Made by a program: the position numbers and the translations under genes. From positions 155,310,001-155,374,000 of the forward strand of contig NC_043000.1 in NCBI RefSeq assembly GCF_006345805.1: DNA of 64,000 bases. The letters run 5' to 3'. The notes under the pieces were generated by a model, which saw nothing but the letters and a program-made list of their open reading frames with translations, was not told the DNA's origin and did not search any database. Source of the stretch: Octopus sinensis (taxonomy: Eukaryota). This document shows, in pieces, positions 24,882 to 64,000 of the stretch (within the stretch, counting starts at the first letter, position 1; each line of letters begins with the position of its first letter).

Positions 24882-27800
24882 TCAGGTCCAGTAAAAAGTA
24901 AGCAACATTCTCAAACATGAAGAATTTGTACCGGCTTTTCGCAGAGTTTTGAATGTTTTTTTAAACATTTTCTCACAATTGTCTGACAATACAGATGCCC
25001 AAATGCATCAATAAATTAACATTGGTATTTTTTTAACATTGTTACAATCATCTGTACTCTAACTGTCAAAGCACGATATTCGAGCAAGTTTGCAATTCAA
25101 CTTTAAAAAAAGGACATTGAGTAGCTGAAACAGTTCGCGATATCAACGAAACGTTCGCTCCGTATTTTGTGAGTTGGAGTTATTCATTTTTTGGTACTTG
25201 TTGGATTGTGCTATTGTTTGTGAAGAGGTGGGCTGTTAAATTTATATTTGTCATTGCTGAACATTTATTGAACGTTGTTGCTGTTAAGTCGTTAAAACAA
25301 TTGTTGTTTTTCCCCGTGCGGGGGAGCCAGCATTATGGCTAGTCCGAAGAAGCAAGATGTCAAGTTGGAGGAACTCATGGAGATGGTAGAATCACGTCTT
25401 CACGAAGATTCTGACGAAGAGAGTCCGCGATTGGGGAGGAATAGCTCACATGAACAAAAAGTAATGAAGCCGTCAACTTCGAGAAAGAATGTCGATGTAC
25501 CGAGTCTATTAACGAAAGAAAAAGGAGAAGAGAGAAAGGAAAAAAACTTAACCTTCGCAACATGGAAGAACATTAAAAAAATGTTAACAAGGGAGGGACA
25601 TAAAAACAAAGTGGCCCCTTCAAAGAGCATCCAGCAAGAGTTAGAAAAGAAACATTGATTTTCAAAACATACAAAGTCAAGGAAAGATAAATTGACTACG
25701 TTGTTGAGGCTGAAATTGAAAAATGCCTCAAGCCGATATGGAATAAGATAAAATATGTAACAAGAGAAAGACGGTTTGCAACGGTCGAGGTCAGGATGGA
25801 GTCGGAAGAAGAAGCCCAGCTCCATTCGGTCGAACCTTTGAAGACATAGGAAGTAGTGCTTCTGCCCATATACATGGATAGACGGACATCCGGAGTTAAT
25901 ATTGCGAATATTCCCCTTGAGGTGAACCCAAAGTGGCTCGTCGCGGCAGTGACGATGGGCCTGGAGGAAAAAAATACAGTTCTAGACGTTGCCAGCCTCA
26001 ATGCTTCCAGTGTGGAAAGAAGGGCCACCTCAGGGCAGACTGCAAACAGAAAGAAACCGAAAGAAGAAAGAAGTGACGGAGAAGGAGACTGAACAAGCGA
26101 TGTAGTCACAAGCGACACCAATGCCAGAAGAAGGGGAAGGGTGGTCTCTTGTCCAGTACACGAGCAAATTGAAACCACACTCCCCGGGAAAAGAAAAAGA
26201 AAAATAAGAGCCACGTCAATACAAAAAAGCGAGGAAACAAGAGAAGAAAAATGAAGAAGAAATCTGCTACATGGCGGTTCTCGTCTCGAATACAGATCTG
26301 ATGAACCGACTGGTAACGATACACGAATAAAAAACGGAAATACCGGAAAAATAAAAATGGTGTAGAAATTTACAAGACAAATAGCAAGAACTATAATATT
26401 TTGGTGAATGACTTCAGAAAAGATATTGGTCCTCTTAGATTGGCCATTTCTACAAACATCACTCTGACGCAAACGAGCTCGAGAAAAAGAAGAGGAGGCG
26501 GGTTCCCCCACCGCCTCCAGACACCGATAAAACGGCAATTCTTCTTATAGCTGTTCACGTAGGATGCATAAGTGTGCTTGGCCTGGTGTCGAGCTGGAAA
26601 CAAGGACATTTCCTAAATGACGTCAGGTCACAATGTTTAGACGTTATTGTTGCTACTGAAACTCGGTTAAAAGGGCCAAGAGATCTGCTCTCGCTCCTGA
26701 AACGCTACGAGAGATTCATTTCTCCAGGCCGGCCGGGGGGCAGGGGTGGAGCGTTGGTCCTACTTAAAAGAAACCGAGTTTCAGAGAAAAGTTAATTTGT
26801 TCAGATCCAGAGAAAATTAACTGGTCGTTTTAGACCTGACATTTAGTTGTGGTAAGGAAATCAGGCTGGTTGCTGTTTATGCACCCAATTCGAGTCAGAC
26901 TGATTATTATCGAGATTTGGAGAAGTTTCTAGGCACAACACGTTCATTAGTTGTGTTAGGAGATTTTACACTATCTTCGATGCACGCGTGGATAGTTTAG
27001 CTGAAATACTGATAGGAGACCTAACATTTGCTTCCGATATCTACTAAGTCGCTTTCAGCTAGTAGATCCCTACAGACTAGAATTCCAGGACGCTCTATTG
27101 GGGACATGGTCAACTAGCGATGGGTCTTCTAGGTCTTAGACAGGGTTTTTATTAGAAAACTAGATATAGTTACATGTCCACAATATCATCTGGTCAGTTA
27201 CAGCGACTATGTAAACTGTACATAGATAAGTTATGTAGTAAGGGATCCGTAGTAAGTCCCTTTTGGCAATTGAGGAATGCAGGAGCCGGATTAAGTTATT
27301 AATACAGAGAGCGTTGACCGGTTCCATTATCAATAACAAATGGTGGTACGCCCTCAAAAGAGCCATTAAATTTGAGTCTATTAGAAATAGTGCAGGTTTA
27401 GTGGCTAGAGGGCGTAGGAAGGAAATTGAATTAGTTAAGGGCCTAGAGGAAGCCATGAGAACTGGTGATGCATCCCAATGAAGGTGAAGAGATTAGAGTT
27501 AAACCAGCACCTCGAAGCCAAGCACATGGGGTGTATCGTCAGAGTTAGACTTCGTGCTATGGGGAGTGAGGGAATCAATGCCACTGGATGGGCACGTGTT
27601 GTTGAAGCTCAACGTGGAACGATTCCATAACTCGATCGTTGGCGAATTAGCAATGTGTGTTGATAAACGAACCCGAGATATGTCGGAATTTTCGGGAGTA
27701 CTTCATCCAGCTTTTCGCGGGAGCGATGGACCGGATAGTAGGACAGACCTTACGGACTTCCTCGCCGGGCTGCCGTGTCTCTTTGGGCTGGATGCAGGGA

Positions 27801-28719
27801 GCTGTGAAAGGTCGACCACACCTTAGGAAGTGATTGGGGCCATAGGTGACTGCAGTGGTGGTAAGGCGCCAGGACTCGATGGTCTACCTTACGAGCTATA
27901 TAAAAGTATGCCAGACTTGCTCGGGCACGTACTGGCTAGCGTTTACGCGAACTGGCAACAGAATGGGCAGATTCCCAGATCTGTGCGCCGGGGAGTGGTA
28001 ACGCTGGCGAGGAAGGACTCCGACAAGGGGGATAGGATAAATAATTTTAGGCCCATCACTCTACTGAACGCAGAGATGAAGATTTTGGCCAAGGTGCTAG
28101 CAAAAAGATTGACTCGTGTCGCGGATGGCCTGATCGGGGAGGCAAAAACCTGTTCAGTCCCCGGCAGAATCATTCAGGATAATCTTCATCTTATACGCTA
28201 CACTATAGAAGGGTATGGTAATGATTCTGGCAAAGGTAGAGCACTGGTCCATTTCGACCAAGCTAAAGCATTCGATAGGATAGACCATCGTTACTTTGTT
28301 TTTTGTTCTCGCGCAGTTCGGACTGGGTCTTGGTTTTCTCAAGTGGATCATACAGCTGTACTACAACGTCGACTCGATCGTTCGGTGAATGGCTTTCTTT
28401 CAAAGCCGTTCTGTATCAAGCGGTCGGTTCGCTAAGGTTGTCCACTTTCTCCATTTTTATACGTAGTGGCCCTCGAGCCATTGCTGCGAAAGCTGAGTGG
28501 TATCCCGACGAATCCAGGAAGTGGAGGATCGGTTACAGCGTACGCAGGCGACATCACTATCATCGTGACCAAGATGGAACACCTACAGAAAGTAGACGAA
28601 ACCATCAAGGTTTACGAGATGGTAACAGGAGCAAAAATTGTTGAAATATGAGAAAATGTTGAAATATATTGTCATGAATTTCATGTTTCAAAATGTTGCT
28701 TACTTTTTACTTAGCCTGA
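24882..28719 (+). mobile_element. Mariner shell (both TIRs, TA flanks) enclosing a LINE
   Basis: TCAGGTCCAGTAAAAAGTAAGCAACATTCTCAAACATGAA / TTCATGTTTCAAAATGTTGCTTACTTTTTACTTAGCCTGA; transposase N-terminus KHDIRASLQFNFKK..VAETVRDINETF at ~25065-25157. Confidence 0.8.
25158..28639 (+). mobile_element. L1/Tx1-like LINE (5' UTR, ORF1, APE endonuclease, RT), degenerate and 3'-truncated
   Basis: DVIVATET (APE), VAVYAPN, KAPGLDGLPYELY, NFRPITLLNAEMKILAKVLAKRL, DQAKAFDRIDH, AYAGDITI; many stops and frameshifts. Confidence 0.85.
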
Positions 28720-36465: not shown

Positions 36466-37494
36466 AAATCCTTAAATCCTTAAAAATGTTTTAGCCCGAA
36501 GGCCGTGGCCATGCTGGGGCACCACCGCTGAATGAGCTACACTAGTTTGTGAATCCACCTCTGATACGTGGCACTTGATCAACAAGGGAGTTCGATGCTG
36601 CTGCCCGCATCCGCGTCTCCTGTCGTGAGGTAGGCTCATCTGGGACTCCCAACAAGAAGAGATCCAGTTTAGTTTTAAAGAAACCCACATCCACACCATG
36701 TAAGTCTCTCAGGCATTTAGGGAGGATGTTAAAGAGCTGTGGTCCTCTGAAACCCAAGCTGTTGCAGTATCTGGACCTGTATTTTGATGGTGATGTTGGA
36801 ATCCTTGGCACCACGCAGCGGCGCCCCGTTCTGCGGTTGGAGTAACTTTGAATGCCAAAGTTTGGGACAGGACCCTCGAGGATTTTCCAGATGTATATCA
36901 CTGCATATCTCTCCCGCCTCCGCTCTAGGGAGAAGAGGTTTAATACCTTCAGTCTTTCCCAGTAGCTGATATTTTGCATTGAGACGATTTTCTTTGTGTA
37001 GCTTCTCTGAATTGCTTCGAGTTCTGCTGTTTGTTTTATATTGTGTGGTGACCAAAGTTGGGAGCAGTAGTCCAAGCGGCTGAGGACGAATGTTTTCCAT
37101 AGGACCATCAGTGTCTCCTTCTCTCTTGTTCTGAAAGTTCGGAGAATCCATCCAGCTAGCCGTCTGCATTTTATCACCAGATTAGCAATATGCATTTGGA
37201 AAGATGCATCATTGCTCATGTCAATGCCCAGGTCACGCACTGATTTTGACTCAGGGATTGCAATTCTTCCTGGGCCAGTGTATCCAGTCTTCACGTCATT
37301 TACCTTTGTGTGCCAGTAGCACAGGGCCTGGAACTTACCTGCATTAAACTGCATGTTGTTGTCCTCAGCCCACCTGTATATTGTGTCCAGCTCATGTTGC
37401 AGATGCGCAATATTTTCAGGGTTTTGTATTGCGTGGGAGACTTTTGTGTCATCTGCATAGCTAGCAAGGGTGGTCATCGTAGCAACTGAAGGCA
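36466..37494 (-). mobile_element. CR1/L2-like LINE, 5'-truncated, RT C-terminal frame open
   Basis: SYADDTK, MQFNAGKF, VRDLGI, RLDYCSQLWSP, SLERRRERY; tail (TTTAAGGA)n. Confidence 0.9.
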
Positions 37495-37718
37495 TATATA
37501 TATACAAACATATATATATATATATATATGTATACACATATATAATCACATACATACACATAAACACACAAAGACACACATATATACACATGCATATACA
37601 CACATATATATATACAGATATACATACGCACACACATATTTATATATATATATATACAATGCACACACTCGCGCACACACGCACCCCGAGCGTACTTACT
37701 TATATGTTTGTATATATA

Positions 37719-40954: not shown

Positions 40955-41114
40955 TATATACAAATATATATCTATATATAGATATATACATAAATGCATA
41001 TATACATATATAAACACATATAAACATAATCCAAACAAGAAAGCACAAAAAAACACAACAACGCGAGGACGTGGAACAAATATAGTATTATTGGACGCTC
41101 AGAAAAGAAGGAGG

Positions 41115-41149
41115 GTTTAACGTTTCGAGCGGAGCTCTTCGTCGGAAAC
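41115..41149 (-). ncRNA. Minimal hammerhead-like motif (Penelope pLTR type)
   Basis: GTTT-CCGACGA-A-GAGC(TCC)GCTC-GAAAC-GTT-AAAC; palindromic AACGTT helix III; U4C core variant. Confidence 0.55.
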
Positions 41150-41312
41150 ATAGGAGAAGAAAAGATCCAGAGAAGGGAAGACAGAGGAAAAAAATCGCCA
41201 ACGGTACACACGCGGTCACTTATATATACATATATAAATACATATTTACATACATATATATACATATCTATATACATACTTATATATACTTAAATATACA
41301 TATATATATATG

Positions 41313-42449: not shown

Positions 42450-42960
42450 TGCTGGCAGAATCGTCACCATACAGGACAAAAATACTTGGTGTCGTTTCTT
42501 CTGGGTTTATGTTCTGACTAGCAGTATCGCCCGGCGTTGCTCGGGTTTGTAAGGGAAATAACTATATAAGCATTTTTAGAGATGTAAAGTATAATAGCCA
42601 TCTCAATATGGCTAACCACAAAGGGGGGGGGTGTTACTGTAGCTTTTTACGTTCTGAGATTTAATAATAAATTTTTAGAGAGTTACTTCCCTTATATATG
42701 CCAAAAATGCATTAAAAAATGGGAAAAATTGATGGTAAATTTTTTTTTTAAATCGTAGACTCATCGTAGACGCGCGCTAATACCCAGAAGGGCTCGATAT
42801 GAATCACGACTATAAGATACCAGCTTTTGGTTAAACTGCACCGCAAAATGTGGGAGTAGTTAGGAATCTAAATCGTAGGAGACAGACAGCACACAACCTC
42901 TCTTTTATATATAAAGATTTCAAATTCTCCCGATGTCGATTTTGCTTTCTTTCTTTTGAA
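42450..42960 (+). mobile_element. SINE family B interrupted by a Helitron
   Basis: GCTGGCAGAATCG...GTTCTGA | insert | TTTCAAATTCTCCCGATGTCGA. Confidence 0.75.
42518..42917 (-). mobile_element. Non-autonomous Helitron (400 bp)
   Basis: Minus strand starts TCTTTATATATAAAAG, ends with hairpin CCCGAGCAACGCCGGG then CTAG; inserted between A and T with no TSD. Confidence 0.88.
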
Positions 42961-46180: not shown

Positions 46181-47300
46181 AGCCTTAGTCTTCAATGTAA
46201 ATTTATGAAAATTTATAAAACGCGGAAATTCCACGGCCCCTACTATTATTACACAATATTACTTACTAATATAGATTCGTTCTGGGTTGACTTTATCTTC
46301 CACCTTATTAAAATTGATAAAATATACTACCAATCAGATCGATACTTGGATCGTCGGTTCCCTCGCCTCACATTTCTGACTTTGTACCTAGATCAGAAGT
46401 TATTACTTCGTATACCCATGCATTTAAAAATGCACATATACGTACATGTATGCATTAATATAGTTGCAGATACAGACACATATGTTTAATTGTGTGTGAT
46501 TATACTCTCTAAATATTTAAGCGTCATTTTCCTCGATTCGTACCATACACTTACACATACACGACAACTCTTTAGTACCGTTGCCTCAACGACAATTCAA
46601 AATGCTTCTAACTTCTACATCACCCACATTGAAGTAATTGCAATGTAATACACAGCGACATTCATGAGTGAAGTGCACTCTCTAGAGTTCTATCTATCGA
46701 TGCATTAACAAGAAAATTTTAACGGAATAGTGAACTACATTGCCTCAATATTAATTCCCCCGTAACTAATATACAACTCAAACTGCTAATGTTAGAGGAA
46801 GCTCAGGGCTATCTTAACATAGCACATAGTTTACGAATATTAATATATATATCATCTGCTTCGTTTCGCCATCAATTCAATCTAGAGTGTTAGAAAGTAC
46901 ATGTGACTTAATAGAAACTCATTAAAAAGGCTTTCGTGTCGACTTTTTAAAATATTCATGTTAATATATGTGTGTGTTTGTGTGTGTATGTGTGTGCGTG
47001 TAGTGCATATTCATGTGAGTGTATGTGAATGTGTGTGTATGTGTATGTATATATATATATATTATGTATATAATATATATATATATGTATATTATATATT
47101 ACATATATATGTGTGTGTGTGTGTATACATACATACATAAACGCAAGCATATCTCTCTCTCTCTCTATATATATATAGATAATATATATATATTTATATA
47201 AATATATATATATAATAAATTTCAGGGACGTACAGTTACTGGAAAAAGTATAATATTATTTGCATTGGGAACTTCTTTTCATCGAAAACCGGTGATTGTC

Positions 47301-47343
47301 GCACGCCGATGACGGGTCAATACCCAGAAACTGCAGTCCGTGC
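47301..47343 (+). ncRNA. Minimal type I hammerhead ribozyme motif
   Basis: GCACG-CCGATGA-C-GGGT(CAAT)ACCC-A-GAAAC-TGCA-GTC-CGTGC: 5-bp stem I, palindromic helix III ACTGCAGT, GUC triplet; U4C variant and C.A at the base of stem II. Confidence 0.65.
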
Positions 47344-47722
47344 ATATCACTTAGGTTGACGAGGGAAGGATGACTTCCCTTTGCAAATACCATAAGGGCA
47401 CAGAAAGTGTGCCTAAAGCCAGCTGGAGATGATGTTCTCCTGGGGCTACAAGCTACAGTAACACCCACCCTTAGTGGTTAGCCATATTGAGATGGCAAGT
47501 ATACCTCACACATATATATATATATAGAGAGAGAGAGACAGACAGACAGACATACAGAGTAAACAGAGTTAGCGGTTATAAAAACTGACTAAGGGATAAA
47601 ATATCCGTATGTACTATCGGTATCCATTATCCGTGTTATCCCCGAGCATTAGTGTGCAAGCACACTATGCACGTGGAGTGTAGGTTATAACAGGATAAAT
47701 AAGAGTTTATCAGGAAATAAAT

Positions 47723-48447
47723 ACAAATAATCAGAAAATGGAGAAAGCCTCAGATTAACAAACAACACGTCGATTGGACCACATTTATAGTTTATTTTTT
47801 AACACAAAGCATGACATAACAAATAGATGACGTAACAAATCTTACGGCCGTTTCTGTATCCGTTGCCAAATGCTGTCTATAAATAATTGCGAAGATAAAA
47901 TTCTTCATCTTCATAGGGCATTCGAATTAAGACACGGAGCTTTATCAGACTGAAAAAAAGAGCATACAGCGTAAACAAAAGGAAGAAGGAATAGGAAAGA
48001 AAATATGGCCTATAAAAGGAGTCTAGAAGCCCAATATATTAAAAAATATATAATCTACCATCTTGGGGCTACAGGGTCTGTAGGTAAAACAGGAACTCGT
48101 AGCCCCTAGATAGTAGATTATAGGCTTTTAATGTATTGGACTTCTACACTTCTTTTCTAGGCTATGTTGTTTTTCCTATTCCTTCTTCCCTTTGTTTATA
48201 CTGGATGGACTTGTTTTTTACCCTGATGAAGCTCCGTACCTTAATTTGAATACCCCATGAAGATAAAGACTTATATTTTCGCAATTATTTATAGACAGCG
48301 TTTGGCAATGGATACAGAAACGGCCGTAAGATTTGTTTGTCAACTATTTGTTATGTCATGCTTTGTATTAAAAAATAAACTATAAATGTGGTCCAATCGA
48401 CGTGTTGTTTGTTAATTTGAGGTTTCCTCCATTTTCTAATTATTTGT
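47723..48447. repeat. Long imperfect palindrome (~355-bp arms, loop under ~10 nt)
   Basis: ACAAATAATCAGAAAATGGAG...GTCGATTGGACCACATTTATAG left end pairs with CTATAAATGTGGTCCAATCGAC...CTCCATTTTCTAATTATTTGT right end; centre ~48085. Confidence 0.93.
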
Positions 48448-56685: not shown

Positions 56686-58950
56686 ATTGTTGGCATCCTT
56701 TTTGTCTCGGGAGACAATGGAGTTGCGCGTAAAGTAGTCTAGTCCGGCTTTTACTTTTCATGTCCTGATACATTTCCTGCTGTGGCTGTGTAGTCCTATC
56801 CTGGACAAACACTCCCTCTGGCAGGTACCGCAAATGTAGTGAAGACTGTACCTGGCTGGTTGTAGTGCCATAGTCTCTTGTTTACGTCTCTTCCTTTCTT
56901 TCCATTTCTCCTCTCTCTCTCTCTCTGCCACTCCTTTGTATTACCTCTTTTATGGTACGTCGCCAGTCTCCACGGTTGCCGGCAACTGCCTCCCAACCGC
57001 TAATGATGTTGCAGGCCTTCATGTCCCTTTTGCAAACATCCTTGTAACGTAAGAACGTTTACCCACAGACATAGTACCCCTAGCAAGCTCTCCGTAGAGT
57101 ATGTCCTTGGGGATTCTGCCATCTTTCATACGGCTAACATGCCCAAGCCATCTCATACGTCTTTGCGTGAGGAGTGCAAACATGCTTGGTATTCCTGCTT
57201 GCCTGAGGACATCTTTGTTGGGGATATGATTCTGCCATCTGATGTGGAGGATTTTCCGGAGGCAGCGCAGGTGAAAGATGTTTAGGCGACGCTCTTGGCG
57301 TGTGTATAGCGTCCAAGTCTCACTTCCATACAGTAGAGTGGTAAGTACTAATGCCTGGTAGATCTTCATTTTCGTGGTATTGGTCTGCTTATTGTTGTCC
57401 CAAGCCCGTTTGGAGAGTTGGGCCATCGCAGCAGCTGCCTTGCCAATGCGTATATTGAGCTCAGCGTCAAGGGATAGGTTGTAGGTGACGGTAGAGCCAA
57501 GATAGGTAAACTTCTCCACCTCTTGTAATCTGTGGTCTCCAATATGTATGTTTGGGATGTCCGATGTAGCCTGACCCATGATGTTGGTCTTCTTAAGGCT
57601 GATAGCTAAGCCAAAGTCGTTACATGCTTGCTCAAAACAGTTAATGAGCCTTTGGAGGGCTTCTTCTGTGTGTGATACCAGAGCGGCATCATCAGCAAAT
57701 AGCATCTCCTTGATCAGGACGTTTCTGATTTTGGTCTTGGCACGCAGGCACGAGAGATTGAACAATTTCCCGTCACTTCTACTGTGCAGAAACACTCCAT
57801 CAACTGATGTCTGAAAGGCATGTGAGAGTAAGAGCGAGAAGAAGATGCCAAACAATGTAGGAGCGAGGACACAATCTTGCTTTACCCCGTTCTTTATTTG
57901 GAAGGCAGCTGATGTTGAACCGTTGTGCTGTATGGTGCCTTGCATGTCATCATGGAAAGACTTGATGATCCTCAGCAGCTTTGGTGGACATCCGATTCTT
58001 TGAAGCAGGATGAAGAGGCCTGTTCTGCTTACCGAGTCAAAGGCCTTTGTTAGATCAATGAAGGCCATATATAATGGCATTCTCTGCTCTCTGGACTTCT
58101 CCTGAAGTTGGCGTATGGAGAATATCATATCGATAGTTGATCTGCTACTTCTAAAGCCACACTGCGATTCCGGATAGATTCGAGAAGCAAGTAGTTGTAG
58201 CCTGGCCAGGGTAACGCGGGCAAAGGTCTTTCCAACAGTGCTTAGAAGAGATAGTCCACGGTAATTGTTACAATCACCACAGTCACCTTTGTTTTTGTAA
58301 AGTGTAATGATGTTTGCATCCCGCATATCCTGAGGGACTGTACCCTCTTCCCAGCACTGACACAGAAGCTCATGAAGGTGCCGAAGCAGGATGGTGTTTT
58401 TGCCGGCTTTGATGATCTCTGAGGGGATGCCATCTTTTCCCAGAGCCTTGTTTCTTGCTAGGGAGTCAACAGCCTTGGTGAGTTCTGCTATAGATGGCGG
58501 ACTGTCAAGTTCGCACATGACTGGCAAGATCTTGACACTCTCGACTGCAGTCTCAGCCACTGTAGTCTCCCGTGAGTAGAGATCCTGGTAGTGCTCCACC
58601 CATCTATCCATTTGCTTGCTTTGATCCCTGATGAGATCTCCAGTAGTTGATTTCAGAGGGGCTGACTTGGTTGCGGATGGACCGAGGGCCTTCTTCAAAC
58701 CGGCATACATCCCACGGGTGTCGCCCCTGTCAGCAGCTGACTGGATACTCTGACAGATTTCCTGCCAATACCTATTTGCACAGCGTCTGGCTGTCAGTTG
58801 GGTTTTATTTCGTGCTTTTCTGAGTTCTTCGAGTGACTTTGTAGAAGAGTCACTCTTGTATTGCATCAGAGCTGCACGCTTTGCTTCGATAACTGGCTCC
58901 AGCTCTGAGAGCCCAGCATTGAACCAATCTGGGTTTTGCCTTTCTCTCAT
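56686..58950 (-). mobile_element. RTE/BovB-like LINE, 5'-truncated
   Basis: RT motifs, C-terminal CGTCQRECLSRIGLHSH zinc finger, 3' end CCATTGTCTCCCGAGAC...GATGCCAAC. Confidence 0.92.
57019..58950 (-). CDS. RTE-clade reverse transcriptase, partial (no endonuclease; C-terminus frameshifted)
   Basis: Open ~640 codons with LYKNKGD, NYRGLSLL, PESQCGFR, FIDLTKAFDSV, GVKQDCVLAPTLF, LFADDAAL, FTYLGS, RWLGHV. Confidence 0.75.
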   Translation of the reverse strand: MRERQNPDWFNAGLSELEPVIEAKRAALMQYKSDSSTKSLEELRKARNKTQLTARRCANRYWQEICQSIQSAADRGDTRGMYAGLKKALGPSATKSAPLKSTTGDLIRDQSKQMDRWVEHYQDLYSRETTVAETAVESVKILPVMCELDSPPSIAELTKAVDSLARNKALGKDGIPSEIIKAGKNTILLRHLHELLCQCWEEGTVPQDMRDANIITLYKNKGDCGDCNNYRGLSLLSTVGKTFARVTLARLQLLASRIYPESQCGFRSSRSTIDMIFSIRQLQEKSREQRMPLYMAFIDLTKAFDSVSRTGLFILLQRIGCPPKLLRIIKSFHDDMQGTIQHNGSTSAAFQIKNGVKQDCVLAPTLFGIFFSLLLSHAFQTSVDGVFLHSRSDGKLFNLSCLRAKTKIRNVLIKEMLFADDAALVSHTEEALQRLINCFEQACNDFGLAISLKKTNIMGQATSDIPNIHIGDHRLQEVEKFTYLGSTVTYNLSLDAELNIRIGKAAAAMAQLSKRAWDNNKQTNTTKMKIYQALVLTTLLYGSETWTLYTRQERRLNIFHLRCLRKILHIRWQNHIPNKDVLRQAGIPSMFALLTQRRMRWLGHVSRMKDGRIPKDILYGELARGTMSVGKRSYVTRMFAKGT

Positions 58951-59048
58951 GCCAAAAATATAAATATAAATTAAATTAGAGATAAAACCACTATTAGGCA
59001 TATCAAACAGTGAAAAACAAACCAAAACATAAAAATAATAATAATTAT

Positions 59049-59668
59049 TCGACGAATTTTCGAAACTTTTCGAAAACTTTTTGGTGAAAATTTTCAAAAA
59101 ATTTTTGGTGAAAATTTTCGAAAACTTTTTGGGTAAAATTTTCAGTAAAAATTTTCGTAAAATTTTTTCGTAAAGTTTTCGAAAAATTTTTGTTGGAAAT
59201 TTTCGGTTAAAAATTTCGAAACATTTTTATGGAAAATTTTCCAAAAATTTTTGGGAAAAATATTCGGTGAAAATTTTCGTAAAATTTTTGGGCAAAATTT
59301 TCTAAAAATTTTTGGTCAAAATTCTCGAAAAATTTTTGGTGAAAATTTTCAGGAAATTTTTGGGTAAAACTTTCGAAAGATTTTTATGGAAAATTTTTGG
59401 GCAAAACTTTCGAAAAATTTTTAGTGAAAATTTTCTGTTAAAATTTTCGGTGAAACTTTTCCAAAACTTTTTGGTGAAAATTTTCGAAAAAATTTTGGTG
59501 AAAATTTTCGAAAACTTTTTGGGTAAAACTTTCGGTGAAAATTTTCGTAAAATTTTTGGTGAAAATTCTCGAAAAATTTTTTGTGAAAATTTTCGGGAAA
59601 TTTTTGTGTAAAATTTTCAAAAAATTATTGGGTAAAATTTTATAAAAATTTTTATGGAAAATTTTCGG
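59049..59668. repeat. Satellite A (GGTGAAAATTTTCGAAAAATTTTT-like, 11-13-bp subunits)
   Basis: Tandem quasi-palindromic GAAAATTTTC units. Confidence 0.9.
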
Positions 59669-61229
59669 CACATCTTGTCCGGCACTCACTTTGATCTCTT
59701 TCGGGACTCCTCTTTGAGCTCTTTCGGCATCCACTTTGATCTCTTTCGAGACTCGTCTTTGATCTCGTTCGGCAACCTCATTGATCTCTTTTGGCACACT
59801 TTTTGATCTCTTTCGGGACCCTCATCGATCTCTTTCAGGACCCTCTTTCATTTCTTTCGGCATCTTCTTTGATCTCTTTCGAGACTCCACTTTGATCTCT
59901 TTCGGGACTCCTCTTTGATCTCTTTCGGCATCCTCTTTGATCTCTTTCGGGACTCGTCTTTGATCTCTTTCGGCAACCACATTGATCTCTTTCGGCACCC
60001 TCTTTGATCTCTTTCGGGTCTCCTCTTTCATCTCTTTCGGGACTCCTTTTTGATCTCTTTCGGCACCCTCTTCGATCTCTGTCGGCACACTCTTTGATCT
60101 CTGTCGGCACCCTCTTTGATCTCTGTCGGCATGGTCTTTGATCTCTGTCGGCACGCTCTTTGATCTCTGTCGACACGCTCTTTGATCTCTGTCGGGACGC
60201 TCATTGATAGCTGTCGGCACCCTCTTTGATCACTGCCGATACCCTCTTTGATCTCTGTCGGCACGCTCTTTGATCTATATCGGCACCCTCTTTGATCTCT
60301 GCCGATACCCTCTTTGATCTCTGTCGGCACCCTCTTTGATCTCTTTCGGCACCCTCTCTGATCTTTTTCGGCACCCTTTTTGATATCTTTCGGCACTCTC
60401 TTTGATCTCTTTCGGGACACCTATTTGATCTCTTTCGGCATCCTCTTTGATCTCTGTCGGCACACTCTTTGATCTCTGTCGGCACCCTCTTTGATCTCTG
60501 TCGGCATGCTCTTTGATCTCTGTCGGCACGCTCTTTGATCTCTGTCGGCACGCTCTTTGATCTCTGTCAGCACGCTCATTGATAGCTGTCGGCACCCTCT
60601 TTGATCTCTGCCGATACCCTCTTTGATCTCTGTCGGCACCCTCTTTGACCTCTATCGGCATGGTCTTTGATCTCTGTCGGCACGCTCTTTGATCTCTGTC
60701 GACACGCTCTTTGATCTCTTTCGGGACACCTATTTGATCTCTTTCGGCATCCTCTTTGATCTCTTTCGGCACCCTCTTTGATCTCTATCGGCACTCTTTT
60801 TGATCTGTTTCGGCACTCTCTTCGATCTCTTTAGGCATCCTCTTTGATCTCTGTCGGCACCCTCTTTGATCTCTGTCGGTACGCTCATTGATAGCTGTCG
60901 ACACCCTCTCTGATCTCTTTCGGCATCCTCTTTGATCTCTTTCGTCATCCTCTTTGATCTCTTTCGGCATCCTCTTTGATCTCTTTCGGCATCCTCTTTG
61001 CTCTCTTTCGGCACTCTTTTTTATCTCTTTCGGCACTCTCTTTGATCTCTTTCGAGTCTCCTCTTTGATCTCTTTCGGCACTATCTTTCATCTCTTTCGG
61101 GACCCCCTTTGATCTCTTTCGGCACTCTCTTTGATATATTTCGGCACCCTCTTTGATCTCTTTCGGCACCGCCTTTATCTCTTTCGGCACTCTTTTTGAT
61201 CTCTTTCGGGACTCATCTTTGATCTGTTC
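59669..61229. repeat. Satellite B, 22-bp unit CTCTTTGATCTCT(T/G)TCGGCACC, ~70 copies
   Basis: Tandem 22-mers with recurrent higher-order blocks. Confidence 0.95.
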
Positions 61230-61724
61230 GGTGAAAATTTTCGATGAAAATTTTCAGGAAATTTTTTGGTTAAATTTTTAGTGAAAATTTTAGAAAAATT
61301 GTTGGTGAAAATCTTAGAAATATTTTTGAGTAAAATTTTCGTTGAAATTTTTCTAAAAATGTCTGAGGAAAATTTTCGAAAAATTTTTGGGTAAAATTTT
61401 CGTTGAAAATTTTCTAAAAATTTTGGTGAAAATTTTCGGTTAAAATTTTCGAAAATTTTTGTGTAAAATTTTCGGTGAAAATTTTCTAAAAATTTTTGTT
61501 GAAAACTTTCGGTTAAAATTTTCGAAAATTTTTGTGTAAAATTTTCGGTGAAAATTTTCGAAAAATTTTTAGGTAAAATTTTCGGTTAAAATTTTCGAAA
61601 AATTTTTGGGTCAAATTTTCGTTGAAAATTTTCAGACAAAATTTGGGTAAAATTTTCGAAAAGTTTTTAGAGAAAGTTTTCGGTGAATATTTTCGAAAAA
61701 TTTTTGGGGAAAATTTTTGACGAA
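61230..61724. repeat. Satellite A, second block in the same orientation
   Basis: GGTGAAAATTTTCG units as in 59049-59668. Confidence 0.9.
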
Positions 61725-61950
61725 AATAGCACCACCTGGCGAAATCTTTCAATTCAGGATTTGTGCACCAAGGCCGATTCGAGCAGAGAGTTATTGTCTC
61801 AGTTATTGTCACATATCCGGGTGTGGGTGGTTTTTCCGGGACTATTTGAAGGAATTTGCCCAAAGACTTCTTGAATTTTGTGTGGTCAGTTTCTGTTTTG
61901 ACGTGTGTTGGTGTGATGTTGAAGAGAGCGGGTCCAATTGAGGTGAAATT
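61725..61950 (-). mobile_element. CR1/L2-like LINE 3' fragment
   Basis: [30 protein letters not shown], homologous to the 10055-10260 copy; CAGGTGGTGCTATT 3' UTR motif. Confidence 0.8.
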
Positions 61951-62368
61951 ATATATATATATATATACATATATATACATATATACATATATATATATAT
62001 AATATATATATATATACATATATACGCATATGTACACATATATATATATATATACATATATACGCATATGTACACACATATATATATACATATACGCATA
62101 TGTACATATATACATATACATATATACGCATATGTACATATATATATATATATATATACGCATATGTACATATATATATATAATATATATATATATATAC
62201 TATATACGCATATGTACACATATATATATATACATATATACGCATATGTACACACATATATATATACATATATACGCATATGTACATATATACATATACA
62301 TATATACGCATATGTACATATATATATATATATATACGCATATGTACATATATATATATATATATACA
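61951..62368. repeat. (TA)n-derived minisatellite with recurring TACGCATATGTACA
   Basis: About ten copies of the motif separated by variable TA/TACA tracts. Confidence 0.85.
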
Positions 62369-64000
62369 CAATGCACAAGGTGTCAGCCCTTCCATCAATG
62401 CACAAAAATGGAAGGTCCAATTCATTGAAGACTGGGTTGGTAACCATTCACACCACATCCCTTTCTTCATTCTCACTGAGACCCACCTTGACAACTCCCA
62501 CTTGGAAGCCGAAGTGAGAGTGAAGAATTTCACAACCATCCGCGCGGATCGTATCGGCAGGAGGAAGGGTGGAACTGCCATTTTCCTGCATGATTCATTT
62601 ACGGCAGATGGAAATAGTATATTCTCCAATGGCTACTGTGAATCAGTCACCGTGCACAACAAAGCCAATGACCTGACAGTAATTGGGCTCTATAGGCCGC
62701 CCCAAACACCCATACTGTGCTTTAAAGAATGCCTCAACAGCATTAAGTGCTTTATTCAACAGTGCCATTCTAGCAACATACTCATGATGGGAGACTTCAA
62801 TCTACCCTGTGTTGACTGGACTACAAACTGTTTGAAACCAAGCACTCCCGCCTCAACCGCTGACAAAGAAGCAGCAGAGTCACTTTTCGACTTTACGAAT
62901 GAGTTTTTCTTGTCCAACTTGTCCTTGCACCAACAAGACATCAGAACATTTTGGACCTAGTGTTTAGTAACCACACTAACACTATACATAACGTTACAGT
63001 GGAAAAAACCCTTCTTTCAGACCATGACATGGTTCTCTGTATCATGAAATTCCACCAGCCGAAAGCTAATCCTAGTGACCTTCCTCCAGCCCACCCATTT
63101 GACAACATGGATCTCCATAAAGCCAACTGGGATGCAATCAGGAACGAGCTATCAAATGTTGACTGGTCCTTTACACATACACACATCTCCACCAACCATA
63201 AAACATCTTGGCAGATCTTTGTAGACACCGTCACAGACATATGTGCAAAACACTCCCCACCAAGACCTGTGAACAAAAAGTGCAGAATCCCCCAAAACAG
63301 AAAAACCATTATCAGAAAAATAAAAAGAACAAACAAAAAAATTAACAAACTAAAGTACTGCCAACAGCAACACACACATTCGACGGCTATCGCACTGCTT
63401 GAATCCAAAAAATATAACCTCCAACAATGCATGAAGACCCTCATCAATAACCAAAGATCAGCTGAGGAGAAGTGGGCCATTGAAAAAATCAAACTCAACC
63501 CCAAATTGTTCTTTTCATTTGCGAGGAAACTCAGGGTCACTGTCTCCACTGTAGGCCTCTAATTGACGAAACTGGCACTCTCCAAGATAATGCCAAATCC
63601 ATGGCCGAGATACTGCAGAAACAATACTGCTCTGTTTTCAGCAATCCTGATATGGCCGATCTGGGCTGTATCAGTGATGTCAACCCCCAACACACTATAT
63701 CGGACATAACGTTTAGTGCCCCTGATGTCTTAGCGGCGATAAACGAAATAAAACACAATTCAGCAGTAGCCCCGATAGGTTCCTGCTTGTGTCCTGAAGG
63801 TGTGTCGACACCAACTTGCATCTCCCTTGCTAATCTGTGGAGAAACTCACTGGATGCTGGCTATATTCCAAAAAACCTTCTGTCCCAGTCTGTTGTCCCA
63901 GTTTTCAAAAAGGGAAACAAGTCCCTTGCAGTGAATTACCGTCCGATCTCACTCACCTCTCATATCATCAAGGTATTTGAGAGGGTGGTGAGATCTCGAA
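62369..64000 (+). mobile_element. CR1/L2-like LINE ORF2 (APE endonuclease to start of RT), frameshifted, continues past the window
   Basis: [74 protein letters not shown]. Confidence 0.9.

Follow-up and report, generated by a model that had tools for sequence, protein, structure and literature searches.

We identify with good confidence, within a 64,000-nucleotide stretch of the Octopus sinensis genome (contig NC_043000.1; hereafter the window), a 5'-truncated copy of a 354-nt, protein-free repeat, referred to here as family A, that carries a predicted type I hammerhead, belongs with the animal non-LTR retrozymes, and was likely inserted into (TA)n by a Penelope-like element (PLE) reverse transcriptase and GIY-YIG endonuclease. 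The window copy retains 289 of about 354 nt: the first 67 nt of the unit are missing, and the 3' terminus coincides with the family's fixed 3' end. It has neither a tail nor an inverted arm, and represents the simplest class of insertion, a single truncated arm within a (TA)n tract. The (TA)n tracts mark where the element landed and lie outside it (Table 1). An initial annotation, made from the letters of the window, had drawn a monomeric unit of ~290 bp at 47215..47505; these bounds give way to 47222-47510, and what they enclose is a truncated copy of a 353-356-nt unit. The window copy, with its single ribozyme, is likely a dead end.

Table 1. Coordinates of the family-A copy, its predicted structural parts and its landing site in the window.
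Feature	Position	Strand	Basis or remark
Family-A retrozyme copy, 5'-truncated	47222..47510	+	Unit positions 68-353 of the 353-nt unit
(TA)n-rich tract, left side of landing site	47044..47221	.	Sequence
Right side of landing site, (TA)n followed by (GA)n	47511..47540	.	Target duplication not resolvable there
Type I hammerhead fold	47301..47343	+	Helix I, 47301-47305 with 47339-47343
Core strand CCGATGA, U4C at 47307	47306..47312	+	U4C common to 6/6 sampled subfamily copies
Helix II GGGT/ACCC (47314-47325), 4 bp, loop CAAT, above C10.1-A11.1 mismatch	47313..47326	+	Sequence
GAAA core strand (47327-47330), palindromic helix III ACTGCAGT (47330-47337), predicted cut after C47338 (GUC)	47327..47338	+	
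Helix I extension, 47292-47296 with 47346-47350, past an internal loop	47292..47350	+	Fold, cross-family pairing
Outer stem, 47259-47264 with 47382-47387, closing the hammerhead-bearing rod	47259..47387	+	82% of cells paired across three families
Hairpin AGGGAAG/CTTCCCT	47362..47380	+	Alternative to a long-range stem; imperfect in most copies
Hairpin GGCAC/GTGCC	47397..47413	+	One compensatory pair across families
Hairpin GGAGA/TCTCC on GCC/GGC stem	47418..47446	+	One compensatory pair across families
Last hairpin GCCAT/ATGGC, preceding the fixed 3' end	47481..47496	+	One compensatory pair across families

The 296-nt stretch yields a better fold than 200 of 200 shuffles (z -4.5), and the longest ORF of the whole unit, when read as a circle, spans 34 aa in the sense and 68 aa in the antisense direction, in keeping with the earlier view that no credible ORF is present. 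Three further hairpins that had been proposed alongside the hammerhead are found at the places given for them, but one, AGGGAAG/CTTCCCT, is atypical of the family: CCTCCCT takes the place of the window copy's CTTCCCT in most copies, and the hairpin is absent from the minimum-energy fold of the whole copy. No host gene near the retrozyme copy was recognised among the open-frame translations of the window. Just downstream of the copy lie two diverged, oppositely oriented copies of a short repeat with a CTGATGAAGCTCCG-like sequence (47900-47960 and 48220-48290), for which a hammerhead descriptor gave no match. The window also holds LINE-like RT/endonuclease remnants, their translations judged by eye, at 57019-59226 (minus), 25296-28644 (plus), 36542-37639 (minus) and 62184-63562 (plus). 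Tandem repeats occupy 59055-61727, where about 70 copies of a 22-bp unit (59680-61225) are flanked on either side by a degenerate, AT-rich array built on 12-bp units.

The type I hammerhead at 47301-47343, with its CCGATGA core, is present in the sequence as first described; across the 64 kb of the window, the descriptor returns two sites, the present one and another on the minus strand at 41145, and none in each of 30 shuffles. Helix I pairs GCACG (47301-47305) with CGTGC (47339-47343) and comprises 6 bp in most copies, C47300 and A47344 being unpaired in the window copy. At the base of helix II, a C-A mismatch (10.1-11.1) constitutes a second non-canonical feature that the initial annotation did not contain, and the first pair of this helix is A-U in some subfamilies and G-C in others. 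Helix III reads ACTGCAGT, ACTCGAGT, ACTCGGGT or ACCCGGGT, all of them self-complementary, in 136 of 157 hammerheads, a count in which loci are not deduplicated and family A was partly selected by this motif. Preservation of self-complementarity despite sequence change is as expected for dimer cutting in the account of PMC4209133, which describes the hammerheads of PLEs as type I, with a palindromic helix III and predicted dimer use.

An Rfam search gave no hammerhead match, the isolated 56-nt hammerhead folds no better than shuffles (z -0.14), and RNAalifold, applied to 44 mostly family-A copies, did not recover the hammerhead; forcing it in four sequences costs 3.6-8.7 kcal/mol above the predicted minimum. 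Comparison between family A and two sister families, B and C, shows that 12 of 12 core positions are identical in the three majority sequences, the corresponding share in the remaining columns being 65% (P about 0.006). Taken over 32 whole units, pairing holds in 91.7% of cells, and six stems, helices I and II among them, show compensatory pairs. Double changes occur in 80 cells, compared with 31.5 in shuffles and at most 9 in slid controls; kinship inflates these cell counts, and pairs with a double change show no excess (10 versus 9.9 in shuffles).

A genome-wide search for copies and tandem arrays, proposed in the initial annotation, was positive on both counts. Over 2.7 Gb, all 40 scored candidates match, the 39 other than the window copy at 91-96%; these 40 were drawn from 4339 candidates, most of which likely stem from a fragment that another repeat has captured (3240 exact matches). 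Searching with an exact 22-mer from the 3' end gives 603 matches, and with the reversed pattern 0; two patterns drawn from loose ends gave 0 matches as well. The first 100 listed matches to this 22-mer correspond to 70 insertions, which extrapolates to a lower bound of at least about 420, and the family is dispersed over at least 20 contigs. Because copies run beyond the ends of the window copy, through a 67-nt linker and into the next unit, the unit can be set at 353-356 nt; it has 45% GC, head-to-tail junctions and a conserved internal T5 run. Head-to-tail copies with two whole hammerheads occur at the family-A loci L066, L141 and L160, and such tandems are rare (2 of 70 insertions).

The sister families share 75-77% identity with family A and with one another. 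Family B has a 352-nt unit, its best 40 copies standing at 95-100% to the query, and includes a 3.1-unit tandem (L242:1118-2285) with three hammerheads, one of which has deletions in the core region; the units of this array are not identical. Family C is older. The first reading of the element, as a retrozyme or a Penelope-derived, SINE-like element, is supported by copy number, tandem junctions, covariation and the insertion anatomy described below, except that nothing SINE-like in the tRNA sense was seen: ARAGORN reported a tRNA-derived part in 0 of 5 loci, and Rfam gave no tRNA match.

The sequence is present in runs under four organism labels, the contigs of three of which span the junction of insertion L023, and metagenome contigs gave no family match. 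Contigs were taken from four runs guessed to be RNA and from three of DNA or unknown kind. In these contigs, the joint between head-to-tail units turns up in DNA runs as well as in a single run guessed to be RNA, whose depth profile resembles DNA; a 3' peak in the depth profile is explained by the fragment captured in another repeat. One instance of this fragment lies on the minus strand of the window at 42583-42645, where ~95 bp of an old copy (its 3' end and an inverted tail piece, flanked by a 10-bp duplication) sit inside a ~370-bp repeat. The fragment has been amplified along with this host repeat, giving the 3240 exact matches mentioned above (also L170, L172 and L175-L182), and we take the host repeat to resemble a Helentron-associated non-autonomous element. 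At L142:762-6095, a 5-kb insertion interrupts a family-A copy, and 20 bp of element sequence are duplicated there.

We examined how copies of the unit are arranged in the 70 insertions behind the first 100 listed matches; two pairs of these, L020/L158 and L142/L143, share flanks, are likely duplicated loci, and were kept in. Arms in both orientations, head to head, are present in 46 of 70 insertions. In 36 of these 46, one arm stops at the unit end, while the other runs 38-52 nt longer and stops where an optional tail ends; this tail extends 41-50 nt beyond the unit end. The predicted cut site is spanned in 35 of 70 insertions, and an arm longer than 413 nt is found in 9 of 70. When the 10 insertions fetched earlier and one interrupted copy are left out, 91 of 100 outer ends in the remaining 59 insertions fall at the unit end or the tail end, and 27 of the 59 have microsatellite flanks. 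Target duplications of 8-15 bp accompany 20 of 32 insertions with non-repetitive flanks, as compared with 11 of 992 mismatched flank pairs. PMC8557442 and PMC3846280 describe PLEs as marked by partial tandems, by a truncated copy lying next to the first in inverted orientation, and by a tail on one side; by these shared marks, the insertion anatomy of the family is the PLE one that those descriptions set out.

The arms of an insertion also carry information about their template. At subfamily-diagnostic positions, the inverted arms of one insertion mismatch in 71 of 601 cases and tandem arms in 11 of 218, as opposed to about 33-34% between insertions. Such agreement at diagnostic bases points to a common template or source for the two arms of an insertion. 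Among 100 arms, 39 come to within 10 nt of the cut site and 33 extend past 180 nt, and a clear stop at exactly one unit length was not seen among the 100. A linear monomer cut at both ends cannot yield most copies, whereas a circle or an uncut multimer can, and the rarity of tandem loci with two hammerheads favours the circle, without proving it. Six of the 39 arms stop 3-7 nt past the cut site (two of these being one duplicated locus, with its junction possibly at the site), and thus some linear cut template may exist. In two other cases, L080:1501-1560 and L141:1544-1725, family-A arms have 3' ends within 2 nt of the predicted cut site rather than at the unit or tail end, which may reflect later deletions or rare priming on cut RNA. 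A search for circular junctions at GUC 47338, suggested at the outset, would be uninformative, since cutting and re-ligation restore the genomic sequence at that point.

We envisage a cycle in which rare source loci with two whole hammerheads would be transcribed, the ribozymes would cut the transcript, likely as dimers through the palindromic helix III, and a host ligase would close a 354-nt circle. A PLE protein would cut AT-rich DNA with a stagger of about 8-15 bp, and both of the resulting DNA ends would prime reverse transcription on a single RNA molecule, with starts at two fixed sites (the unit end and the tail end) separated by 41-50 nt. Synthesis would then read on through the ribozyme site until fall-off.

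GIY-YIG matches in the genome number 5029 candidates, of which 150 were scored, and open frames of 775-883 aa that combine RT and GIY-YIG were found in three of four scanned loci. One young PLE family with a 781-aa frame (L213-L217, L219 and L221-L224) carries a U3-A8 hammerhead with a palindromic ACATGT in its 3' UTR, has a fixed end in (TA)n, and shows its optional tail at 8 of the 23 distinct ends. Likeness of the retrozyme tail to that of the 781-aa family is weak for family A (33 of 2000 shuffles), and for family B there is none (541 of 2000). Among the approximately 70 PLE loci sampled, no partner was found by homology, adjacency or chimeric insertions, and the retrozyme unit has no look-alike in the PLE 3' regions sampled. 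An ORF with RT and GIY-YIG is absent from the unit, and none is joined to it in 234 family loci; in the same 234, no PLE frame is joined to the repeat as a terminal repeat (pLTR), and pieces of such a frame occur in 7, four of which were viewed and three judged from coordinates. L068 and L080, considered as unit-PLE junctions, were ruled out by spacers or opposite orientation.

The C at position 4 of the window copy's core (U4C) had been regarded as typical of the element and equated with the same change at 41139-41145, and neither view is upheld. Exact core patterns give 212 CTGA and 47 CCGA matches, making U4C the minority state, and the sequence at 41139-41145 lies on the minus strand, reads CCGACGA, and belongs to another repeat family, whose likeness to family A goes no further than 7-8-nt chance words. 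That second site forms part of a minimal hammerhead (CCGACGA...GAAACGTT; 41095-41155, minus strand) in a separate, abundant set of ~200-bp repeats in (TA)n, with 14 matches in 312 loci; across 13 other distinct core-covering loci of this family, position 4 is C in 6 and T in 7.

Within family A, a tree of 100 copies, built without the U4 site and enriched for CCGA by design, shows 10 changes between the U4 and C4 states, as against at least 23 in 500 shuffles. Position 4 is C in 6 of 6 members of the window's clade and in 23 of 25 members of a second clade. The existence of C4-rich clades indicates that U4C source copies were copied repeatedly; as judged from these sequences, U4C is inherited in two lineages that still spread. 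The U4C of the window copy would have come from its source copy, and would be predicted to weaken, not necessarily abolish, cutting. The change is a known natural variant that, according to PMC3088659, has lower activity in vitro, enough for viroid infectivity; the CUGA turn is tolerant of little change (PMC9901934). Some family-A copies have two non-canonical core features, U4C and the C-A mismatch at 10.1-11.1. One explanation for these doubly damaged lineages, which we consider rather unlikely, is that they spread at least twice because self-cutting is not needed: a sibling RNA that retains an intact CUGA would use its catalytic half to cut them in trans, by way of the palindromic helix III. 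If this were true, trans-cut lineages would cheat inside an element that is itself the parasite of a parasite, and their circle, copied from two fixed starts, would provide a 354-nt substrate with which to reconstitute Penelope integration.

Different accounts of the copies as a whole can be set against this body of evidence. We give next to no credence to the idea that the hammerhead is a chance fold, or the family a satellite spread by DNA recombination; the missing Rfam match and the unexceptional stability of the isolated hammerhead would suit such an origin, but covariation and core conservation run counter to it, and it is already refuted by the insertion anatomy, in which copies dispersed over at least 20 contigs show target duplications and polar truncation. 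Mobilisation of a SINE-like element by a LINE (L1, RTE or CR1), with inversions produced by twin priming, is very improbable. LINE insertions too display 8-15-bp target duplications, 5' truncation and inversions, and LINE remnants are plentiful in the window; however, the element itself bears no tail of poly(A) or simple repeats and no tRNA head, and overlapping arms that both start in the 3' end region are unlike L1 twin priming. A one-sided tail is, in addition, described in PMC8557442 as unseen in LINE insertion.

The copies might instead be truncated terminal repeats (pLTRs) of an undiscovered autonomous PLE rather than an independent non-coding element, which we hold to be improbable. Their insertion anatomy is that of PLEs, whose hammerheads reside mostly in solo truncated ends as PMC4209133 reports them, and the PLE families of this genome were sampled in part (150 of 5029 candidates scored). 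Arms that continue past the unit start, however, enter another copy of the retrozyme unit and not coding sequence, an array of 3.1 units exists, 0 of 234 loci join a PLE frame in the manner of a pLTR, and the sampled PLE 3' regions offer no counterpart of the unit. A possible account, if not a likely one, leaves element and mobiliser unchanged and makes the template a linear, uncut multimeric or read-through transcript, with a family-A hammerhead that is weak or vestigial and no circle. The pairing of U4C with the mismatch at 10.1-11.1, the spread of U4C lineages, the reduced activity of U4C in vitro (PMC3088659) and the narrow tolerance of the CUGA turn (PMC9901934) would all fit a linear template, as would the non-identical units of the family-B trimer, and read-through of the cut site suits an uncut multimer as well as a circle. 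Yet the core and helices have been kept across three families at 75-77% identity, through-junction arms are common where tandem source loci are rare, and the retrozymes of coral, mussel and axolotl make circles in the account of PMC7229834.

The reading that we prefer, a non-coding retrozyme inserted by PLE enzymes, adds a trio of families (A, B and C) to the animal retrozymes and provides genomic footprints (a one-sided tail, an inverted arm, and two arms from one template) for the proposal that PLEs carry retrozymes. The gain is modest, since this kind of element has already been published, as has its proposed partner. Natural U4 and C4 lineages, together with the small size of the unit, make the roles of cleavage and circularity testable, and a point of interest is how lineages with U4C and the helix II mismatch kept spreading. 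Literature searches found no published description of this family; supplements and repeat databases (Repbase, Dfam) were outside their scope, and the family may be catalogued there.

On the defining features tested, as Cervera and de la Pena (2020; PMC7229834) present them, the octopus element is by its sequence a member of the animal non-LTR retrozymes. It shares with them a non-coding unit of 170-400 nt (350-390 in mussel) with under 50% GC, a type I hammerhead with a short palindromic helix III, a highly self-paired predicted circle, target duplications of more than 4 bp, and co-occurrence with PLEs; in the axolotl HHR_Amex2, as here, the base of helix II is mismatched. Relative to the retrozymes covered in that account, the octopus family consists mostly of dispersed truncated or inverted copies with few tandems, and has U4C lineages and a C-A at 10.1-11.1, and its ribozyme and circle are predicted. 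Mobilisation of retrozyme circles by PLEs was proposed in PMC7229834 and argued further by Li, Clavereau and Pollet (2026; bioRxiv 10.64898/2026.07.22.740005), who likewise describe monomer, dimer and multimer copies with a PLE as the proposed mobiliser. Their case, as the preprint puts it, is built on co-occurrence and pLTR homology, mainly in vertebrates, whereas the present one draws on insertion anatomy, with no homologous pLTR found; eight of nine dimers tested in the preprint are reported without cleavage.

Comparison with insertions of endonuclease-bearing PLEs, as far as PMC3846280 and PMC8557442 describe them, reveals common partial tandems, an adjacent inverted 5'-truncated copy and an optional one-sided tail, along with target duplications (8-10 bp in PLEs) and a microsatellite bias, as here. 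The octopus unit differs from them in having no ORF and in the length of its tail (41-50 nt, versus 30-40 in PLEs), and its ribozyme lies 172 nt before the 3' end, as opposed to about 75 nt in the PLE ends seen in this genome. Helices I and II are of canonical size, in contrast to the minimal form of the PLE hammerheads described in PMC4209133. With respect to the core variants known from PMC3088659, U4C is carried here by amplified genomic lineages.
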